A stretch of DNA of 7,869 bases, taken from the IMG/VR virus record IMGVR_UViG_2778261644_000009; one strand, given 5' to 3'. The notes below the pieces were generated by a model. It saw only the letters and a program-made list of their open reading frames with translations, was not told where the DNA came from and did not search any database. Origin of the DNA: a virus (taxonomy: Duplodnaviria; Heunggongvirae; Uroviricota; Caudoviricetes). Shown here in pieces: positions 13 through 7,869 of this stretch; position 1 is the first letter of the stretch, and each line of letters opens with the position of its first letter. The position numbers and the translations under genes were made by a program.

Positions 13-144
13 CCACAGAATTCTGTTAATCTTAACTTTTAAAGAGATTTGTACCCAAACAAAAGTCTGTTACCCCACCTATACAGAAAACTGTTAGATT
101 CAACCACAGAAAACTGTTAGACACCCCCACAGAATTCTGTTACC
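13..144. repeat. Array of five direct repeats (iterons), each with a 12-bp internal dyad ACAGAAnnCTGT followed by TA; putative initiator-binding sites of a replication origin
   Basis: Dyads at 15-26 (ACAGAATTCTGT), 59-70 (ACAAAAGTCTGT, degenerate), 83-94 and 106-117 (ACAGAAAACTGT), 129-140 (ACAGAATTCTGT); each preceded by a C-rich stretch; centres 20.5, 64.5, 88.5, 111.5, 134.5, i.e. 22-24 bp or multiples (about two helical turns). Window starts inside or just before the array, so it may extend upstream. Confidence 0.6.
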
Positions 145-148
145 TATT

Positions 149-206
149 AGATCATTTATTAAATTACTTATTAAATTATAATATTATATATTTATTTATA
201 TGATCT
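149..206. promoter_or_regulatory. AT-rich block, putative DNA-unwinding element of the origin
   Basis: About 46 bp of almost pure A/T (155-200) immediately after the iterons, flanked by inverted 6-mers AGATCA (149-154) and TGATCT (201-206), each with a GATC site; tandem TTATTAAATTA at 156-166 and 168-178. Confidence 0.4.
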
Positions 207-375
207 TTTGCCTTCCGGCGTTAAGCTTCACTCCCTGGCAAGCAGCCTTACTCCGCTACCTTTGGGCTTCGTGGCTGGCCCGTTCCGCTCACACCGAAAG
301 CAAAGCGTTACTTTCTTCGTGTAACTATCGTTGGCGGTAACGCCCACGAAGAAATACTATTGCGCTGTGCGCAGA
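207..375. other. GC-rich hairpin-dense island; candidate structured RNA or single-strand initiation/packaging signal, function unknown
   Basis: GC-rich in an AT-rich context, no ORF. Nested stem-loop: TTTCTTCGTG (312-321) pairs with CACGAAGAAA (345-354), enclosing GGCG-GTAA-CGCC (333-344, GNRA-type tetraloop). CTTCGTG also at 267-273. Small hairpin TGCGC-tgt-GCGCA at 361-373. Confidence 0.3.
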
Positions 376-1218: not shown

Positions 1219-1247
1219 TTGACAAATGTTTCTTTATATGTAATAAT
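1219..1247 (+). promoter_or_regulatory. Sigma70-type promoter for the early operon
   Basis: TTGACA (1219-1224), 17-bp spacer, AATAAT (1242-1247); A/T-rich upstream; first gene starts at 1358 with SD AAGGAG (1346-1351). Confidence 0.5.
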
Positions 1248-1357: not shown

Positions 1358-1546
1358 ATGAAATGGTTTACATCGGAGCACGTCATCGAGGCATTTAAAA
1401 AAGGTGAGCTAACACGCCACCAAGTAGTAATGAACCGTAATATGGCAAGGAGTCGAGGTTATCCAGAGCGAGCAGCTTGCTTCAATGAAGCACTCAAGAT
1501 TATTGATGAACTAAGAAAAAATGAAAAAGAATCTGAAACAGAGTAA
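1358..1546 (+). CDS. Small hypothetical protein (62 aa), possibly regulatory
   Basis: ATG 1358 with SD AAGGAG 6 nt upstream; first gene after the promoter; stop 20 nt before the next SD-led gene. No recognisable motif. Confidence 0.55.
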   Translation: MKWFTSEHVIEAFKKGELTRHQVVMNRNMARSRGYPERAACFNEALKIIDELRKNEKESETE

Positions 1547-1565: not shown

Positions 1566-1733
1566 ATGAGCGAAACTAAGAAACCAATTCCGCGCACTTA
1601 CCTACACGTTGACCCTGAAATCTTCAAGGTTTTATTTGCTGAAGCCAAGAAAAGGCAAATTATGGTCAGTGATTTGATGTTAGAAATCATTACTGAAGCA
1701 GCAGAGAACATCAAACAAAAAAAGGGTAAGTGA
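1566..1733 (+). CDS. Putative ribbon-helix-helix (CopG/Arc/MetJ-like) DNA-binding protein, 55 aa; absent from the supplied ORF track
   Basis: ATG 1566 with SD AAGGAG (1554-1559); translation MSETKKPIPRTYLHVDPEIFKVLFAEAKKRQIMVSDLMLEIITEAAENIKQKKGK; strand-like RTYLHVDPEIF followed by two amphipathic helices, the RHH pattern; stop TGA 1731-1733. Confidence 0.5.
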   Translation: MSETKKPIPRTYLHVDPEIFKVLFAEAKKRQIMVSDLMLEIITEAAENIKQKKGK

Positions 1734-1784: not shown

Positions 1785-2438
1785 ATGATTAATGAAGAAC
1801 AATTTGTAAAAGTTCCTATGTGGATTCTAAAAATAAGCCAAGTAAACGGGCATAAATTTACAGATAGTGCTAAAAACCTTTACTGCTATCTGAAAGGGTT
1901 TGATCGTGCATTTCCCTCTTACGCTAAGATAGGCGATGTTTTTGGCATAACACCAAGAGCAGCAGAGGAAAGGGTTAAGAAATTGCTCGAAATGGGATTA
2001 ATTATAAAAGATGCACGACCAGGAAGTTCTAATGTCTATCAAGTGGTAGATATTCCACAAGAAGAAGCTAGACAAGAAGCCCAGACACAACAAGAAGCTA
2101 CTGTTAAAGCTGTTCCTGATCAGCTTCCCCCTACGGAAGATAATAAAGAGTCTTCTTTTGATGTTCTTGATGATTGGGATGCGCCTTTGCCGTGGGAGAC
2201 GGAAGAAACACCTGTTTCATCAAGTGAAAAAGTAGCTAATGATAATGAGGAGGATGTGTTAGAGAATTTTGCCTCTCTTATCTGCCAGCAGAAACACACC
2301 AGAACAGGAGGGGCATCATTTATTGAGTTTGCAAATTCACTAGCTTATAGATACGGGCTAAAGCTACCAAATGGTATTGAGGCATATTTTTCTAAGCATT
2401 ACCCAAATGTGTATGATGACTTTGATATTCCATTTTAA
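1785..2438 (+). CDS. Putative replication initiator / replisome organiser: N-terminal winged helix-turn-helix, acidic linker, C-terminus ending DDFDIPF (SSB C-terminal-tip-like)
   Basis: SD AAGGAG (1772-1777) 7 nt before ATG. N-terminal pattern LYCYLKGF...PSYAKIGDVFGITPRAAEERVKKLLEMGLII typical of phage/plasmid initiator wHTH; acidic stretch PQEEARQEAQTQQEA...; last seven codons (2415-2435) encode D-D-F-D-I-P-F, cf. E. coli SSB ...DFDDDIPF. Confidence 0.8.
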   Translation: MINEEQFVKVPMWILKISQVNGHKFTDSAKNLYCYLKGFDRAFPSYAKIGDVFGITPRAAEERVKKLLEMGLIIKDARPGSSNVYQVVDIPQEEARQEAQTQQEATVKAVPDQLPPTEDNKESSFDVLDDWDAPLPWETEETPVSSSEKVANDNEEDVLENFASLICQQKHTRTGGASFIEFANSLAYRYGLKLPNGIEAYFSKHYPNVYDDFDIPF

Positions 2439-3661: not shown

Positions 3662-3792
3662 AATTATATAGGGTGATTATTTTTCCTTTATTGGTTCGAT
3701 ATTAAAAATTCTTCTTGTCGTTAAAGGGGAGTAAAATCTCCGCTCCCCGCTTCTCCTCCTCCTTAAGTGTCATTATTACCTCTTTTTTCCTT

Positions 3793-3824
3793 TGTTATGC
3801 ATACATCTTGGAGTATGCATAACA
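3793..3824. repeat. Perfect 12-bp inverted repeat TGTTATGCATAC / GTATGCATAACA with 8-nt spacer
   Basis: 3793-3804 is the exact reverse complement of 3813-3824; loop ATCTTGGA (3805-3812); no flanking U-tract on either strand, so not a terminator. Confidence 0.6.
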
Positions 3825-3852
3825 TAGGGTAATTACATAGGTACAAGTTAAT

Positions 3853-3884
3853 AAAAGGCGGCTTTAAATGCTGCCTTTTATTTT
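3853..3884 (+). terminator. Rho-independent terminator between the promoter at 3633 and the downstream genes
   Basis: Stem GGCGGC (3857-3862) / GCTGCC (3870-3875), one G-U pair, loop TTTAAAT, then TTTTATTTT (3876-3884); A-tract 3853-3856 upstream. Confidence 0.55.
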
Positions 3885-4536: not shown

Positions 4537-5565
4537 ATGATTCTAGGTAATGATTACGTTGATTTAGCTCCTCTGTTCTCTGCGCATAGCACTAGAAACT
4601 ATCTGCTTTCTACTCTCGACTTCACTGATCCGGTGGGCGTTAGTTCTCATAAAGTAGCTGTTTCCCAGCTTGTCGAAAGCAACGAATCTCTGTTCAACAA
4701 AGAAACCTCTCGTTTCTCTTCTGAACACAACGTTACTAAGCGAGAACAAGGTAAAGAATGGCTGATCGAGATCCCTTACTTCCTGCGTGAAGATGTGATC
4801 CGTCCTTCTGATGTTCAAGGCAAACGTAAACCTGGCACTGATTTCCAGGAAACACTCACTGATATCTACGCGGAATATGTTGCTAAACACAATGTTGCAT
4901 TCCAGCGTACAAAAGAGAGCGTGTTGGCGGCTTCTTTGTTCTCTGGCAAAACTTACACGCCTAAAACTGATGATGTTCTTATCGAATGGGGCAAGCTGTT
5001 TAACGTATCAGCTATGAAAGCCACTGTGAACGCTTCCAGCACTGACACCACGAAGATTTTTAAAGAATTTGATCAGATTGCTACTGACATTATCGAAAAA
5101 GCACAAAGCCAGGCGGCTGCTGTAGAGCGTATTGTTGTTTTCTGTAAGCCGGAAGCATTCTCTGCAATTCGATTCTCTGCGGGTATGGCAAACGCATTCC
5201 AGTATGTAAGCCCACTGGAAGAAGGGAACGTTGTGTACCAGCGTCGTGACCTGCTACCGGGGGTGACAGCGTTCACTATTCCAGGAACTAACATTGATGT
5301 TATTAAACTGGTAGATCCGCTACACCTTGCACATATGACCGCAGACGCTGTAGCGATTCCGAGGTTTGCTAAGGGGGCAGGTGTTTATGCCAACATCTTC
5401 GGGGCGGCTTCCAGCACCTTTGAACTGATTAATACCGCTCCTGCTGAGGTTTATAGCTATAGCTATGAATCTTCTCGTGGTGATGCTGTTAACGTTGTTA
5501 CAGAGAATAGCCAGATGGTTGTAAACCACGGCGTTGGCTTCTCCGTTCAAATCACTGTGAAATAA
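4537..5565 (+). CDS. Highly expressed 342-aa protein; putative major structural (capsid-like) protein, assignment tentative
   Basis: ATG 4537 after AAAGGA; codon usage visibly different from the AT-rich early genes (CTG, CGT, GGT/GGC, TCT, AAA, GAA, as in highly expressed enterobacterial genes); no signal peptide or nucleotide-binding motif; followed by the strongest terminator in the window. Confidence 0.85.
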   Translation: MILGNDYVDLAPLFSAHSTRNYLLSTLDFTDPVGVSSHKVAVSQLVESNESLFNKETSRFSSEHNVTKREQGKEWLIEIPYFLREDVIRPSDVQGKRKPGTDFQETLTDIYAEYVAKHNVAFQRTKESVLAASLFSGKTYTPKTDDVLIEWGKLFNVSAMKATVNASSTDTTKIFKEFDQIATDIIEKAQSQAAAVERIVVFCKPEAFSAIRFSAGMANAFQYVSPLEEGNVVYQRRDLLPGVTAFTIPGTNIDVIKLVDPLHLAHMTADAVAIPRFAKGAGVYANIFGAASSTFELINTAPAEVYSYSYESSRGDAVNVVTENSQMVVNHGVGFSVQITVK

Positions 5566-5870: not shown

Positions 5871-7703
5871 ATGTTAGAAATTAACACTTCTAAAATTAAG
5901 AACACAGTTACATTTAGTGTAGATAAAGACAGCTTGAAAAAAGCGAAAGACTCTATTACAGGCTTAAAGGAATTCGCCGAAAATATCAAGCCAGCTAAGC
6001 TGAGATTTGATAGTGTCACTAAAGGCTATAAGAAAGCACAAAGTGAAGTAGACAAGATTGCTCAACAGAAAGCTAAAACAGAAAAACAAAATCAAAGAGC
6101 ACAAGCTGCCGCAGCAAGAGCACAGGCAAGGCAACAGCAACAAATAGCAGCACGTAAAGAGAAAGCAGAATTAAAGCTCCTTGATGTATCAAGCTCTATC
6201 AGTGCAATGCACCGTCTCTCTGTAGCTGAACAATACAAAGCTATTGCACAGGCTAGAGAGATAGCAAAACAATATGAGCAAGGGGCTATCTCGCTTGCAC
6301 GTATGAATAGCCAAATGAAACGCCTACAACAGCAACAACGTAAGATTAATGGCAACAGAAAAGCTCAATTAGCCCCCGTTAAGGGAGGAGGATCAGGGAA
6401 TGCCGCCACTATGGGCGCTCTGTTATTTGGAGGCGCTACAGCGGCTGCTGGCGTGATGGCTGTTAGTAAAACCTCTGAATTTATGGCTAATAGCTTTGCT
6501 AACGCAGATACCCAAGGGGAGCTAATTCAACGTGCCAAGCTGGGCGGTGTAGACGTTAACCAGATGTATAATATTACAGAATGGGCGTATAGAAACGGCG
6601 TTGACTCTATGATGGGTGATCAAGGGGCTAGGAAATACCTGGATCAGATGAAAGATGTTAGGGAACGTGCCGCAAAATCCTACAGTGAAGCTGAATTGGT
6701 GAAAGATAAGAAAACCGGAAAATCTGAATGGAAAGGCGGTGATAACGCTATTAATGAACTTCTAAACATCGGTGTTATTAACAAAAGCGACCTTAAAAAA
6801 TTTGCTGATAATCCGGCTGGATTAATTTCTAAGGCTGTTAATGGAATGATGAAAAAAGGGTTTTCAGACTCCCAAATTGGACAACGTTTAGAAGACCTGG
6901 GCGATGATTTGATGCTTACATCAAAATATTGGCAACGTTCCGTTAAAGATGTACAAGAAAGTATTAATCAGCAAAAAGCCTCTGGAAAATGGCTAACAGA
7001 AACACAGCAAGACTCTATTGTTAAATTCAGAGAACTAAACAGACAGCTTTCACAGCTTTCTGATGCAAGACAAGTAGCATTCGTAGACGGCTTTATGAAA
7101 TCTCTCGATCCAAAAGTAACGGAAGAGTTTATGAAAAACCTTTCTAATCTCACTCCGTATTTTACGAAACTAGGGGAAGCTGTAGGAAGTCTCTTTGAGG
7201 CTATTATGAAGCTTGTAAACTGGTTTAATCGTAATGATGATAAGACAGATGCTATTCAGAAAAATTTAGGTGATGCACCGCCATTAAGCAATGAAGGGAT
7301 GAAACAGCATCTTTCTAATCTCGTTCCTGACCAATATAAAGGCGCTGGAACTGCAACAACTGCACCTGATAATAGTCATTCTCTCTTTAATACAATTAAG
7401 GGATTGCTTTTTGATGATAATTCTTCTGTGTCAGATGTAAAAATGTCAGTTAGTGAAGCACCGATAACCAATCTCAAACAGGGTGCTTTAAATAATCTTG
7501 CAATGACAACTCCGGCTTATAATTTATCTCCTGTGTTTAATCTGAATCCAACGTTTGAAGTGGTAACAGAGGTTCCTCTTACTATTAATTCTGACACATC
7601 AAGATTAAGCGATTATGTGGATTTTACAGCGAGAGCAAGTCGGGATAGCTTCTTGAAATCATTAACATTAACCAGCTTATCAGGACAATCCAACGGCGGG
7701 TAA
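5871..7703 (+). CDS. Large coiled-coil protein (610 aa) with internal Gly/Ala-rich hydrophobic segment; tape-measure-like or ejection/pilot-type structural protein (tentative)
   Basis: ATG 5871 after AAGGGGA; N-terminal 160 aa rich in K/Q/A/R heptad-like sequence (KAKTEKQNQRAQAAAARAQARQQQQIAARKEKAELK); then GGGSGNAATMGALLFGGATAAAGVMAV; no N-terminal signal peptide, no HUH or Walker motifs. Confidence 0.85.
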   Translation: MLEINTSKIKNTVTFSVDKDSLKKAKDSITGLKEFAENIKPAKLRFDSVTKGYKKAQSEVDKIAQQKAKTEKQNQRAQAAAARAQARQQQQIAARKEKAELKLLDVSSSISAMHRLSVAEQYKAIAQAREIAKQYEQGAISLARMNSQMKRLQQQQRKINGNRKAQLAPVKGGGSGNAATMGALLFGGATAAAGVMAVSKTSEFMANSFANADTQGELIQRAKLGGVDVNQMYNITEWAYRNGVDSMMGDQGARKYLDQMKDVRERAAKSYSEAELVKDKKTGKSEWKGGDNAINELLNIGVINKSDLKKFADNPAGLISKAVNGMMKKGFSDSQIGQRLEDLGDDLMLTSKYWQRSVKDVQESINQQKASGKWLTETQQDSIVKFRELNRQLSQLSDARQVAFVDGFMKSLDPKVTEEFMKNLSNLTPYFTKLGEAVGSLFEAIMKLVNWFNRNDDKTDAIQKNLGDAPPLSNEGMKQHLSNLVPDQYKGAGTATTAPDNSHSLFNTIKGLLFDDNSSVSDVKMSVSEAPITNLKQGALNNLAMTTPAYNLSPVFNLNPTFEVVTEVPLTINSDTSRLSDYVDFTARASRDSFLKSLTLTSLSGQSNGG

Positions 7704-7737: not shown

Positions 7738-7869
<132 letters not shown>

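Follow-up and report, generated by a model that had tools for sequence, protein, structure and literature searches.

Why would a protein with the marks of an origin binder end like SSB, the bacterial protein that binds single-stranded DNA? This question is raised by the IMG/VR virus record IMGVR_UViG_2778261644_000009, a stretch of 7,869 nt from the Caudoviricetes (hereafter the window), in which an open reading frame (ORF) at positions 1785..2438 encodes a 217-residue protein whose last residues resemble the docking tip of E. coli SSB. Among 5,426 complete E. coli genomes, 195 carry a chromosomal island to which the whole window was 94-95% identical, and a further comparison by partial matches gave 742 genomes. 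From the evidence presented below, a probability of roughly 0.55 is given to the reading that an integrative, phage-satellite-like island uses the 217-residue protein as its replication initiator and that the C-terminal tip of this protein mimics the SSB docking tip, which is a central docking code of bacterial genome maintenance.

The 217-residue protein and its C-terminal tip

The gene and the parts of its product are arranged as follows:

1785..2438 (+): gene for the 217-residue origin-binding (initiator-like) protein with an SSB-like C-terminal tip; ORF call, translation, PHROG matches and homologues
1785..2099 (+): putative N-terminal winged-helix DNA-binding domain, residues 1-105, allele A; HTH_36, phrog_270, fold matches and identity to phage proteins
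2100..2246 (+): acidic linker, predicted to be disordered, residues 106-154; 13 acidic and 3 basic residues, disorder prediction
2154-2207 (+): conserved acidic-aromatic motif SFDVLDDWDAPLPWETEE in the second half of the linker
2247..2414 (+): small predicted helical C-terminal domain, residues 155-210, with its last helix reaching F213; AF2 pLDDT 81-90
2415..2435 (+): tip D-D-F-D-I-P-F, of which the distal DIPF equals the final four residues of E. coli SSB

Translation of the ORF, which starts with ATG and has AAGGAG just 5′ of it, ended in ...NVYDDFDIPF (residue strings KHYPNVYDDFDIPF and SKHYPNVYDDFDIPF), confirming the SSB-like DDFDIPF end that a sequence-only reading of the window had pointed out. 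The tip residues are encoded by GAT GAC TTT GAT ATT CCA TTT (2415-2435) and followed by the stop codon TAA (2436-2438), so that the span 2415-2438 given in that reading comprises the seven residues plus the stop codon. The presence of the tip on this protein is not a chance match, and the contribution of chance is negligible: a C-terminal DIPF would arise with a probability of about 5e-6 per protein (estimate from background frequencies), and only 20 copies of the 217-residue protein and one phage SSB ended in [DE][IL]PF among the 1,043 ORFs of at least 60 residues present in 521 kb of retrieved loci. Copying of the tip from an ssb gene by recombination was also considered and found no support, as the only DNA in common with a phage ssb gene was a 13-mer within GAT ATT CCA TTT; this 13-mer is attributed to codon constraint, and the proximal residues differ as well.

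The C-terminal tip of SSB (SSB-Ct) combines a proximal DFDD with a distal DIPF, of which IPF is required, while the Asp residues and the proximal Phe add affinity; the crystal structures of its partner complexes resolve IPF or DIPF only (PMC10143822). Both the terminal IPF and the acidic context were found in the 217-residue protein, which makes its tip a putative ligand of the SSB-tip pocket, and its end (...YDDFDIPF, directly followed by the stop) has the acidic [DE]-[IL]-P-F form of bacterial SSB. No match to an OB fold or to the Pfam SSB family was found at E<=0.1, and the long disordered linker that directly precedes the tip in bacterial SSB was not seen in the AF2 model, in which a helical domain abuts the last four residues. 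The earlier statement that an acidic linker precedes the tip held only in part: the acidic linker exists (residues 106-154), but the helical domain (residues 155-213) separates it from the tip. In particular, four helices were predicted across residues 155-213 (pLDDT 81-90), leaving D214-I-P-F217 alone as a predicted free coil of lower confidence. The C-terminal module had no match in fold searches against PDB and BFVD or in family searches against Pfam and NCBIfam; just 7 relatives of it were found among 1.84 billion cluster representatives, and a scan of 185,579 species genomes added one further genome, Escherichia sp. E1V33.

Conservation of the tip on two C-terminal modules

The tip was kept in every intact homologue and, furthermore, on a second, unrelated C-terminal module, so that the refuting outcome proposed earlier, a tip that homologues do not conserve, was not seen. 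It stood at the C-terminus, as [NK][VI]Y[DE][DE]FD[IL]PF, in 114 of the 120 best-listed cluster representatives at 90% identity; the six exceptions were two phage proteins alike at the N-terminus only and four truncated, frameshifted or one-residue-extended entries. All 20 island copies retrieved also kept it. Among 11 distinct nucleotide versions of the 3′ end, the tip codons varied synonymously (TAT/TAC, GAT/GAC, CCA/CCC, TTT/TTC and ATT/ATA), and the amino-acid changes were limited to D/E and I/L, the replacement of I by L being a variation of natural SSB tips too. The most distant homologue found (P0127), with 52% identity in the C-terminal domain and another linker, ends in TFYDDFEIPF and sits in a different island without a capsid gene.

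A second, syntenic island lineage, whose full query region appeared in 183 of the 5,426 E. coli genomes (partially in 507) and in one plasmid copy, encodes a 226-residue initiator-type protein with one of the DNA-binding domains described below (allele D), together with allele-D iterons. This protein ends in ...EKSEIYDSIPF, with variants in ...SESTIYDSLPF in which the preceding 25 residues differ too. No similarity was detectable between the C-terminal modules of the first (type 1) and the second (type 2) lineage (BLASTP E=4.8; hhalign probability 1.1%), so that diverged homology of the two found no support in either comparison; they may be extremely diverged homologues, and synteny suggests that the two genes are positional equivalents. 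The strongest argument that the tail itself is functional is that a terminal Y-D-x(1-3)-[IL]-P-F has been kept on two unrelated effector modules. The linker motif SFDVLDDWDAPLPWETEE, present in all type-1 proteins and absent from P0127 and the type-2 proteins, may be a second short docking motif.

These observations bear on whether the likeness to SSB could be coincidental, the terminal Y-D-x-[IL]-P-F being a structural cap, an oligomerisation element or an auto-inhibitory acidic tail acting on the DNA-binding domain. The placement of Y210-F213 in the last helix by AF2, with just DIPF free, would suit such an intramolecular role, and the acidic tails of SSB, T7 gp2.5 and T4 gp32 act intramolecularly as well. 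However, packing into one particular fold would hardly account for an identical terminal IPF on two dissimilar C-terminal modules; AF2 gives the final four residues as coil, with lower confidence, and the substitutions match those of natural SSB tips. A coincidental or intramolecular role, in which the tip would not engage SSB partners, is considered unlikely.

Repeats that covary with the DNA-binding domain

The cis-acting features relevant to the N-terminal domain are listed here, with the retrieved loci numbered from L001:

15..140 (no strand): five palindromic iterons, ACAGAATTCTGT-like 12-mers at 15, 59, 83, 106 and 129 (spacing 44/24/23/23), putative binding sites of the N-terminal domain
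145..250 (no strand): AT-rich tract that immediately follows the iterons and is similar to a DNA-unwinding element; GC content
1219..1247 (+): sigma-70-like promoter, TTGACA-17-AATAAT with TG, 11/12 matches, upstream of the operon holding the initiator gene
L007 8193-8351; L009 8239-8346; L011 8161-8323; L018 upstream of anchor; L028 7097-7253; L001 8628-9140: arrays in other islands, with a repeat type that follows the allele

The PHROG matches of the 217-residue protein were to phrog_270 'replication initiation protein' (E=3.1e-10), phrog_391 'O-like' (E=4.7e-8) and several further 'O-like' PHROGs. In Pfam, HTH families alone were matched at E<=0.1, over residues 26-73, with HTH_36 at E=6.5e-4 and 19.9 bits, under the cut-off of 25 bits, and a fold search with the AF2 model of the whole protein gave weak winged-helix matches of the MarR/GntR type, none of which was significant.

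At least five alleles (A-E) of the N-terminal domain were found on the same downstream sequence, and each island had four to five palindromic repeats with a spacing of 22-24 bp and, after them, an AT-rich tract. This array marks the left border of the island sequence that is conserved, about 1.5-1.7 kb upstream of the initiator gene, and the GC content next to it in the window was 0.23 (101-200) and 0.28 (151-250), compared to about 0.35-0.45 elsewhere. The repeat was ACAGAATTCTGT for allele A (window 15-140), TATCAATATTGATA for allele B, TAGGTCAyrGTGArCTA for allele C, GTAACGATACGTTAC for allele D and CTAGGAAATGAGTTCCTA for allele E. The cognate type was proximal in 18 of 18 island copies, covering five alleles and two lineages, and other types appeared just as distal remnants. 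Such covariation of the repeat type with the DNA-binding allele is strong evidence, in silico, for binding of the repeats by the N-terminal domain. The same layout of array and AT-rich tract was present in a different island with a distant relative (L006) and in L028, and the tract stood beside the array in three divergent elements. By analogy with iteron initiators, for which cognate repeats beside an AT-rich region are characteristic, this architecture would be that of an iteron origin. No DnaA box was found in the window. The iterons were also considered as operators of the operon promoter, which was rejected, as the sole strong promoter-like site lies more than 1 kb from the array.

Regarding the surroundings of the arrays, some islands, such as L001 and L024, have kept distal remnants of several other array types. 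Four to five GAATTACACAGG-like 12-mers were observed upstream of the iteron arrays of L007, L009 and L011 (7966-8145), outside the window; they may be sites for another protein, since they are conserved across islands whatever the DNA-binding allele.

A satellite-like island and its presumed helper phages

The genes compared between the island and the phages were the following:

4537-5565, 5871-7703 and 7739 to the window end; L001 16704-17417: structural genes of the island (capsid, 610-residue tape-measure-like and Dit-like proteins)
1566..1733 (+): 55-residue ORF directly upstream of the initiator gene, with 100% protein identity to muut_153
L003:20722-21708 (Mt1B1_P17), L002:4232-5230 (muut_154) and phage inny 120157-120549: phage chimera genes

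Judging from its gene content, the island looks like a phage satellite of virulent Stephanstirmvirinae phages and not like a plasmid or phage replicon. Its Dit-like (tail-tube-initiator) protein was 56% identical to a homologue in a Stephanstirmvirinae myophage, while the 610-residue protein and the capsid protein were 31-44% and 21% identical, respectively, to homologues of this subfamily. Having its own capsid, tape-measure-like and Dit-like genes is an unusual set for a satellite, and a literature search found no description of a satellite of these phages or of this gene set. The copy in strain KK19-02 spans about 11 kb and adjoins tRNA-Leu, with the gene order small ORFs, 217-residue protein, five small ORFs, major capsid protein (Phage_cap_E), 67-residue ORF, 610-residue tape-measure-like protein, Dit-like 'baseplate' protein and integrase; other copies had different integration sites and an identical gene order. 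No recognisable helicase, primase, polymerase or loader gene was found in the island by Pfam, PHROG and the annotation of the islands examined. As there is neither such a helicase, primase or loader in the island nor a DnaA box in the window, an origin here must borrow those functions.

The DNA-binding part of the gene was shared with phages. Positions 1746-2138 were 90-95% identical in DNA to the Phapecoctavirus phages Mt1B1_P17 and BI-EHEC, and positions 1554-1792 and 2072-2134, the latter at the start of the linker, were 99% identical to Justusliebigvirus muut; the linker start QEAQTQQEATVKAVPDQLPPTE was also common to the phage chimera proteins. These chimeras (332 residues in muut_154 and 328 in QNJ49226) begin with a DNA-binding domain of the satellite type (allele B or A), to which another winged helix, corresponding to the allele-E domain, and a C-terminal domain are joined. 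The last of these, taken alone, matched MUG113 with 23.7 and 25.0 bits (cut-off 22.3) and T5orf172 with 17.1 and 17.6 bits (below the cut-off of 20), both belonging to the GIY-YIG superfamily, and the chimera also matched phrog_681 'endonuclease' (E=2.4e-18). The amino-acid identity between phage and island DNA-binding domains ranged from 82 to 100%: allele A had 82% identity to the Mt1B1_P17 protein, allele B was the N-terminus of muut_154 and allele D had 95% identity to the phage inny protein, while no phage counterpart of allele C, the commonest one in islands, was found in the collection searched. Judged by these identities, the N-terminal domain is a specificity module exchanged with helper phages. 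In the island, the 55-residue ORF (muut_153 in the phage) lies just upstream of the initiator gene, and in phage muut it has the same position relative to the nuclease-like gene; this ORF looked ribbon-helix-helix-like by eye, with no family match in support.

A comparable chimera is Odn of phage ICP1, in which the DNA-binding domain of the RepA protein of the satellite PLE is joined to a T5orf172 nuclease domain and which cuts the PLE origin at its iterons (PMC8263062). By analogy, the phage chimeras are probably origin-directed anti-satellite nucleases, and satellite and helpers appear to be engaged in an arms race like that of Odn, with the DNA-binding domains and the iterons at stake. The likeness to Odn supports in turn that the repeats would be the satellite origin and the 217-residue protein its initiator. 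The phage homologue was also considered as the initiator of a like origin of the phage itself and was rejected as such, since no cognate iteron arrays were found in the Mt1B1_P17 genome. This absence also gives some in-silico support to the view that the phage protein would cleave the satellite origin.

Overall, the initiator and O-like PHROG matches, the covariation of alleles and iterons beside an AT-rich tract, and the helper chimera with the same DNA-binding domain bear out the earlier view of an origin-binding initiator, and the 217-residue protein is very probably an origin-binding, initiator-type protein. A different function would be that of a transcription factor, of a guard shielding the arrays from the phage nuclease, or of a partition- or packaging-site protein, with a tip that recruits some other partner or serves as a degradation signal. 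The PGAP name 'transcriptional regulator' and the Pfam HTH_36 match under its cut-off speak for such a function. It is rendered improbable by the position of the arrays, more than 1 kb from the operon promoter and beside an AT-rich tract in three divergent elements, by best family matches that are replication initiators, and by a phage chimera that parallels an origin-directed nuclease. As to a degradation signal, we know of no degron ending in DIPF.

Candidate partners of the tip

The SSB-like genes of the helper-type phages are located as follows:

L004:5862-6794: SSB-like gene of Mt1B1_P17
L013:1501-2388: SSB-like gene of AV126
L014:1501-2448: SSB-like gene of EmilieFrey

Helper-type phages have genes for a T7-like replisome, among them those of a primase-helicase and a family A polymerase, and their SSB-like protein (phrog_4477) carries the MDFDDDIPF of E. 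coli (EPPMDFDDDIPF). This string is the true C-terminus in AV126, while the proteins of Mt1B1_P17 and EmilieFrey continue beyond it for 15 residues (APIGLQYGRNFLHCF), whereby the terminal carboxylate would be buried. Close to the SSB-like gene, Phapecoctavirus encodes a nucleotidyltransferase-like protein (L004:4814-5407) that ends in EEDDIPW. As the helper SSB tip equals the host SSB tip, the mimicked docking code is available in both possible replisome donors. The partner could therefore be the helper replisome instead of, or besides, the host SSB interactome, given that the helpers encode both a T7-like replisome and an SSB with the tip of E. coli. Between a host route (PriA or PriC loading DnaB, DnaG, chi) and a helper route (polymerase or primase-helicase), the odds are split about evenly.

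The mechanism that we infer would start with the binding of the N-terminal winged helix to the five palindromic iterons (window 15-140) beside the AT-rich tract, while the C-terminal effector module would offer a free ...D-I-P-F end that mimics the SSB docking tip. Several initiators on the iterons would create a local cluster of SSB-like tips next to melting AT-rich DNA, and such a cluster would imitate SSB-coated single-stranded DNA, docking proteins that have an SSB-tip pocket. Candidates are the host PriA, PriC, DnaG and the chi subunit and/or the helper replisome proteins that normally read the tip of the helper SSB. In this way, captured proteins could allow origin firing in an element that has no recognisable gene for a helicase, primase or loader. 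The steps that go beyond observation are that the array is the origin, that the tip would bind SSB partners and which these would be.

The same resemblance in sequence would be expected from a decoy, that is, a tip that competes with SSB for its partners and recruits nothing to the island; the satellite would then interfere by depriving the helper or the host of functions that depend on SSB. Interference with helpers is common among satellites (PMC8263062). The helper SSB has an identical tip, which would fit a decoy as well. However, a site-specific DNA binder made from a small operon is a poor stoichiometric competitor, and SSB tips number in the thousands per cell; the few molecules bound at an origin cannot out-compete the cellular SSB. 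Moreover, the tip was in every case coupled to a sequence-specific domain, and this domain covaries with its DNA sites, fitting local action on DNA. For these reasons, recruitment is favoured over titration of SSB partners, and a decoy role is seen as a rather remote explanation of the tip.

Several points weigh against a recruiting initiator. The proximal half of the tip is YDDF, compared to DFDD in SSB-Ct, and the second lineage has Ser instead of Asp before IPF. In the model, the tip extends only about four free residues past a folded domain, while the SSB tip follows a disordered linker of about 60 residues, so that its access to partner pockets is not guaranteed; Y210 and F213 may have a structural role in the predicted last helix. 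Apart from P0127 and the second lineage, the homologues are closely related (C-terminal module at least about 80% identical), which makes conservation within that set weak evidence. Finally, the array could be another kind of cis site.

A wider reading would be that a previously undescribed family of E. coli satellites fires its origin through an SSB-tip-mimic initiator, in an Odn-like arms race with Stephanstirmvirinae phages, with the tip kept or evolved twice on unrelated modules; the tips arrayed at the origin would capture the replisome or the primosome. This reading is tentative, with slightly less than even odds. If the tip acts in the proposed manner, the replication start would be minimal, as a sequence-specific DNA binder and a hub mimic of four to eight residues would stand in for a dedicated helicase loader, and the tip would be a natural probe for the SSB partners that suffice for origin firing. 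In addition, the Vibrio PLE/ICP1 system would gain a tractable counterpart in E. coli. This counterpart offers a natural allelic series of five DNA-binding domain/iteron pairs and two effector modules, together with sequenced helper phages from standard collections, which would open satellite replication, helper dependence and phage counter-defence to direct tests.

Further features of the island

The remaining features of the window are these:

1358..1546 (+): 62-residue ORF, first in the operon, with conservation in every island examined
200-1357: no convincing ORF over more than 1.1 kb, yet 89-94% conserved among islands; repeats within it at 436-471/560-595 and at 438-455/543-560; GC-rich patch at 201-350
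3789-3828: 16-nt inverted repeat (94% complementary, 8-nt loop), with a neighbouring hairpin at 3850-3882, in the gap between the early and structural blocks
7809-7868: two long A runs inside the start of the Dit-like gene

No Rfam match was found in the window. The inverted repeat and hairpin (3789-3882) may be a terminator or a regulatory site. For the A runs at 7809-7868, the alternatives are a tract prone to slippage and an artefact of assembly where the window ends; KK19-02 has only an A-rich coding stretch there, rich in Lys and Asn. Of the second lineage, one copy (L026) lies on the IncF conjugative plasmid pEND_Eco 19019-1, beside an IS3 element, and another (L028, 8278-17682) on the chromosome of E. 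coli SC467, where the island adjoins a P4-like element with primase-helicase and Icd-like genes.

Comparison with known systems

A literature search found no report of an SSB-tip mimic on an origin-binding protein or initiator. As far as this search shows, such a mimic would be new, while an initiator that recruits through a short hub-binding motif is of a known kind. With SSB-Ct itself, the protein shares a C-terminal D-I-P-F, free in the predicted structure, after acidic and aromatic residues and the same tolerated variation (D/E, I/L). It differs in that the carrier is a winged-helix protein predicted to bind double-stranded DNA, without an OB fold, with a proximal YDDF and a tip that follows a helical domain.

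The initiator TrfA of RK2 carries a beta-clamp-binding motif (PMC4980987). The island protein is similar in being a putative iteron-binding initiator of a mobile replicon, with a short motif copied from the interaction code of the host replisome that would bring replisome parts to the origin. In contrast, TrfA mimics clamp ligands with an internal motif, while the island protein has an SSB tip at its C-terminus; furthermore, TrfA works with DnaA, DnaB and DnaC, whereas the island window has no DnaA box. Lambda O resembles the island protein in the 'O-like' PHROG similarity and in the succession of its parts, with a domain for iteron binding at the N-terminus, then a flexible linker and finally a C-terminal effector through which the helicase route is brought in. 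However, the island has no gene for a lambda P-like partner, the C-terminal module is unrelated, and the recruitment proposed here would go through an SSB-tip mimic.

In phage T7, both gp2.5 (SSB) and gp4 (helicase-primase) have acidic, Phe-terminated C-terminal tails that dock on the polymerase. The likeness lies in a replication protein other than SSB with an SSB-type acidic tail ending in Phe, and the presumed helper has a T7-like replisome; nevertheless, the tails have unrelated sequences, those of T7 are long and disordered, and the carrier in the island would be an origin-binding protein and not a helicase.

PLE RepA and Odn have in common with the island and its presumed helpers a swappable initiator DNA-binding domain, cognate iterons, a helper chimera with a GIY-YIG-superfamily domain and multiple alleles fitting an arms race. 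No report of an SSB-like tip on PLE RepA was found in the literature. The identity between phage and satellite domains was 82-100% here, compared to 42% in the Vibrio system (PMC8263062), and the phage protein found here stacks two satellite-type DNA-binding domains, unlike Odn. Moreover, the island domain is an HTH_36-like winged helix with no Pfam RepA_N match, which makes it an analogue of PLE RepA and not a homologue.

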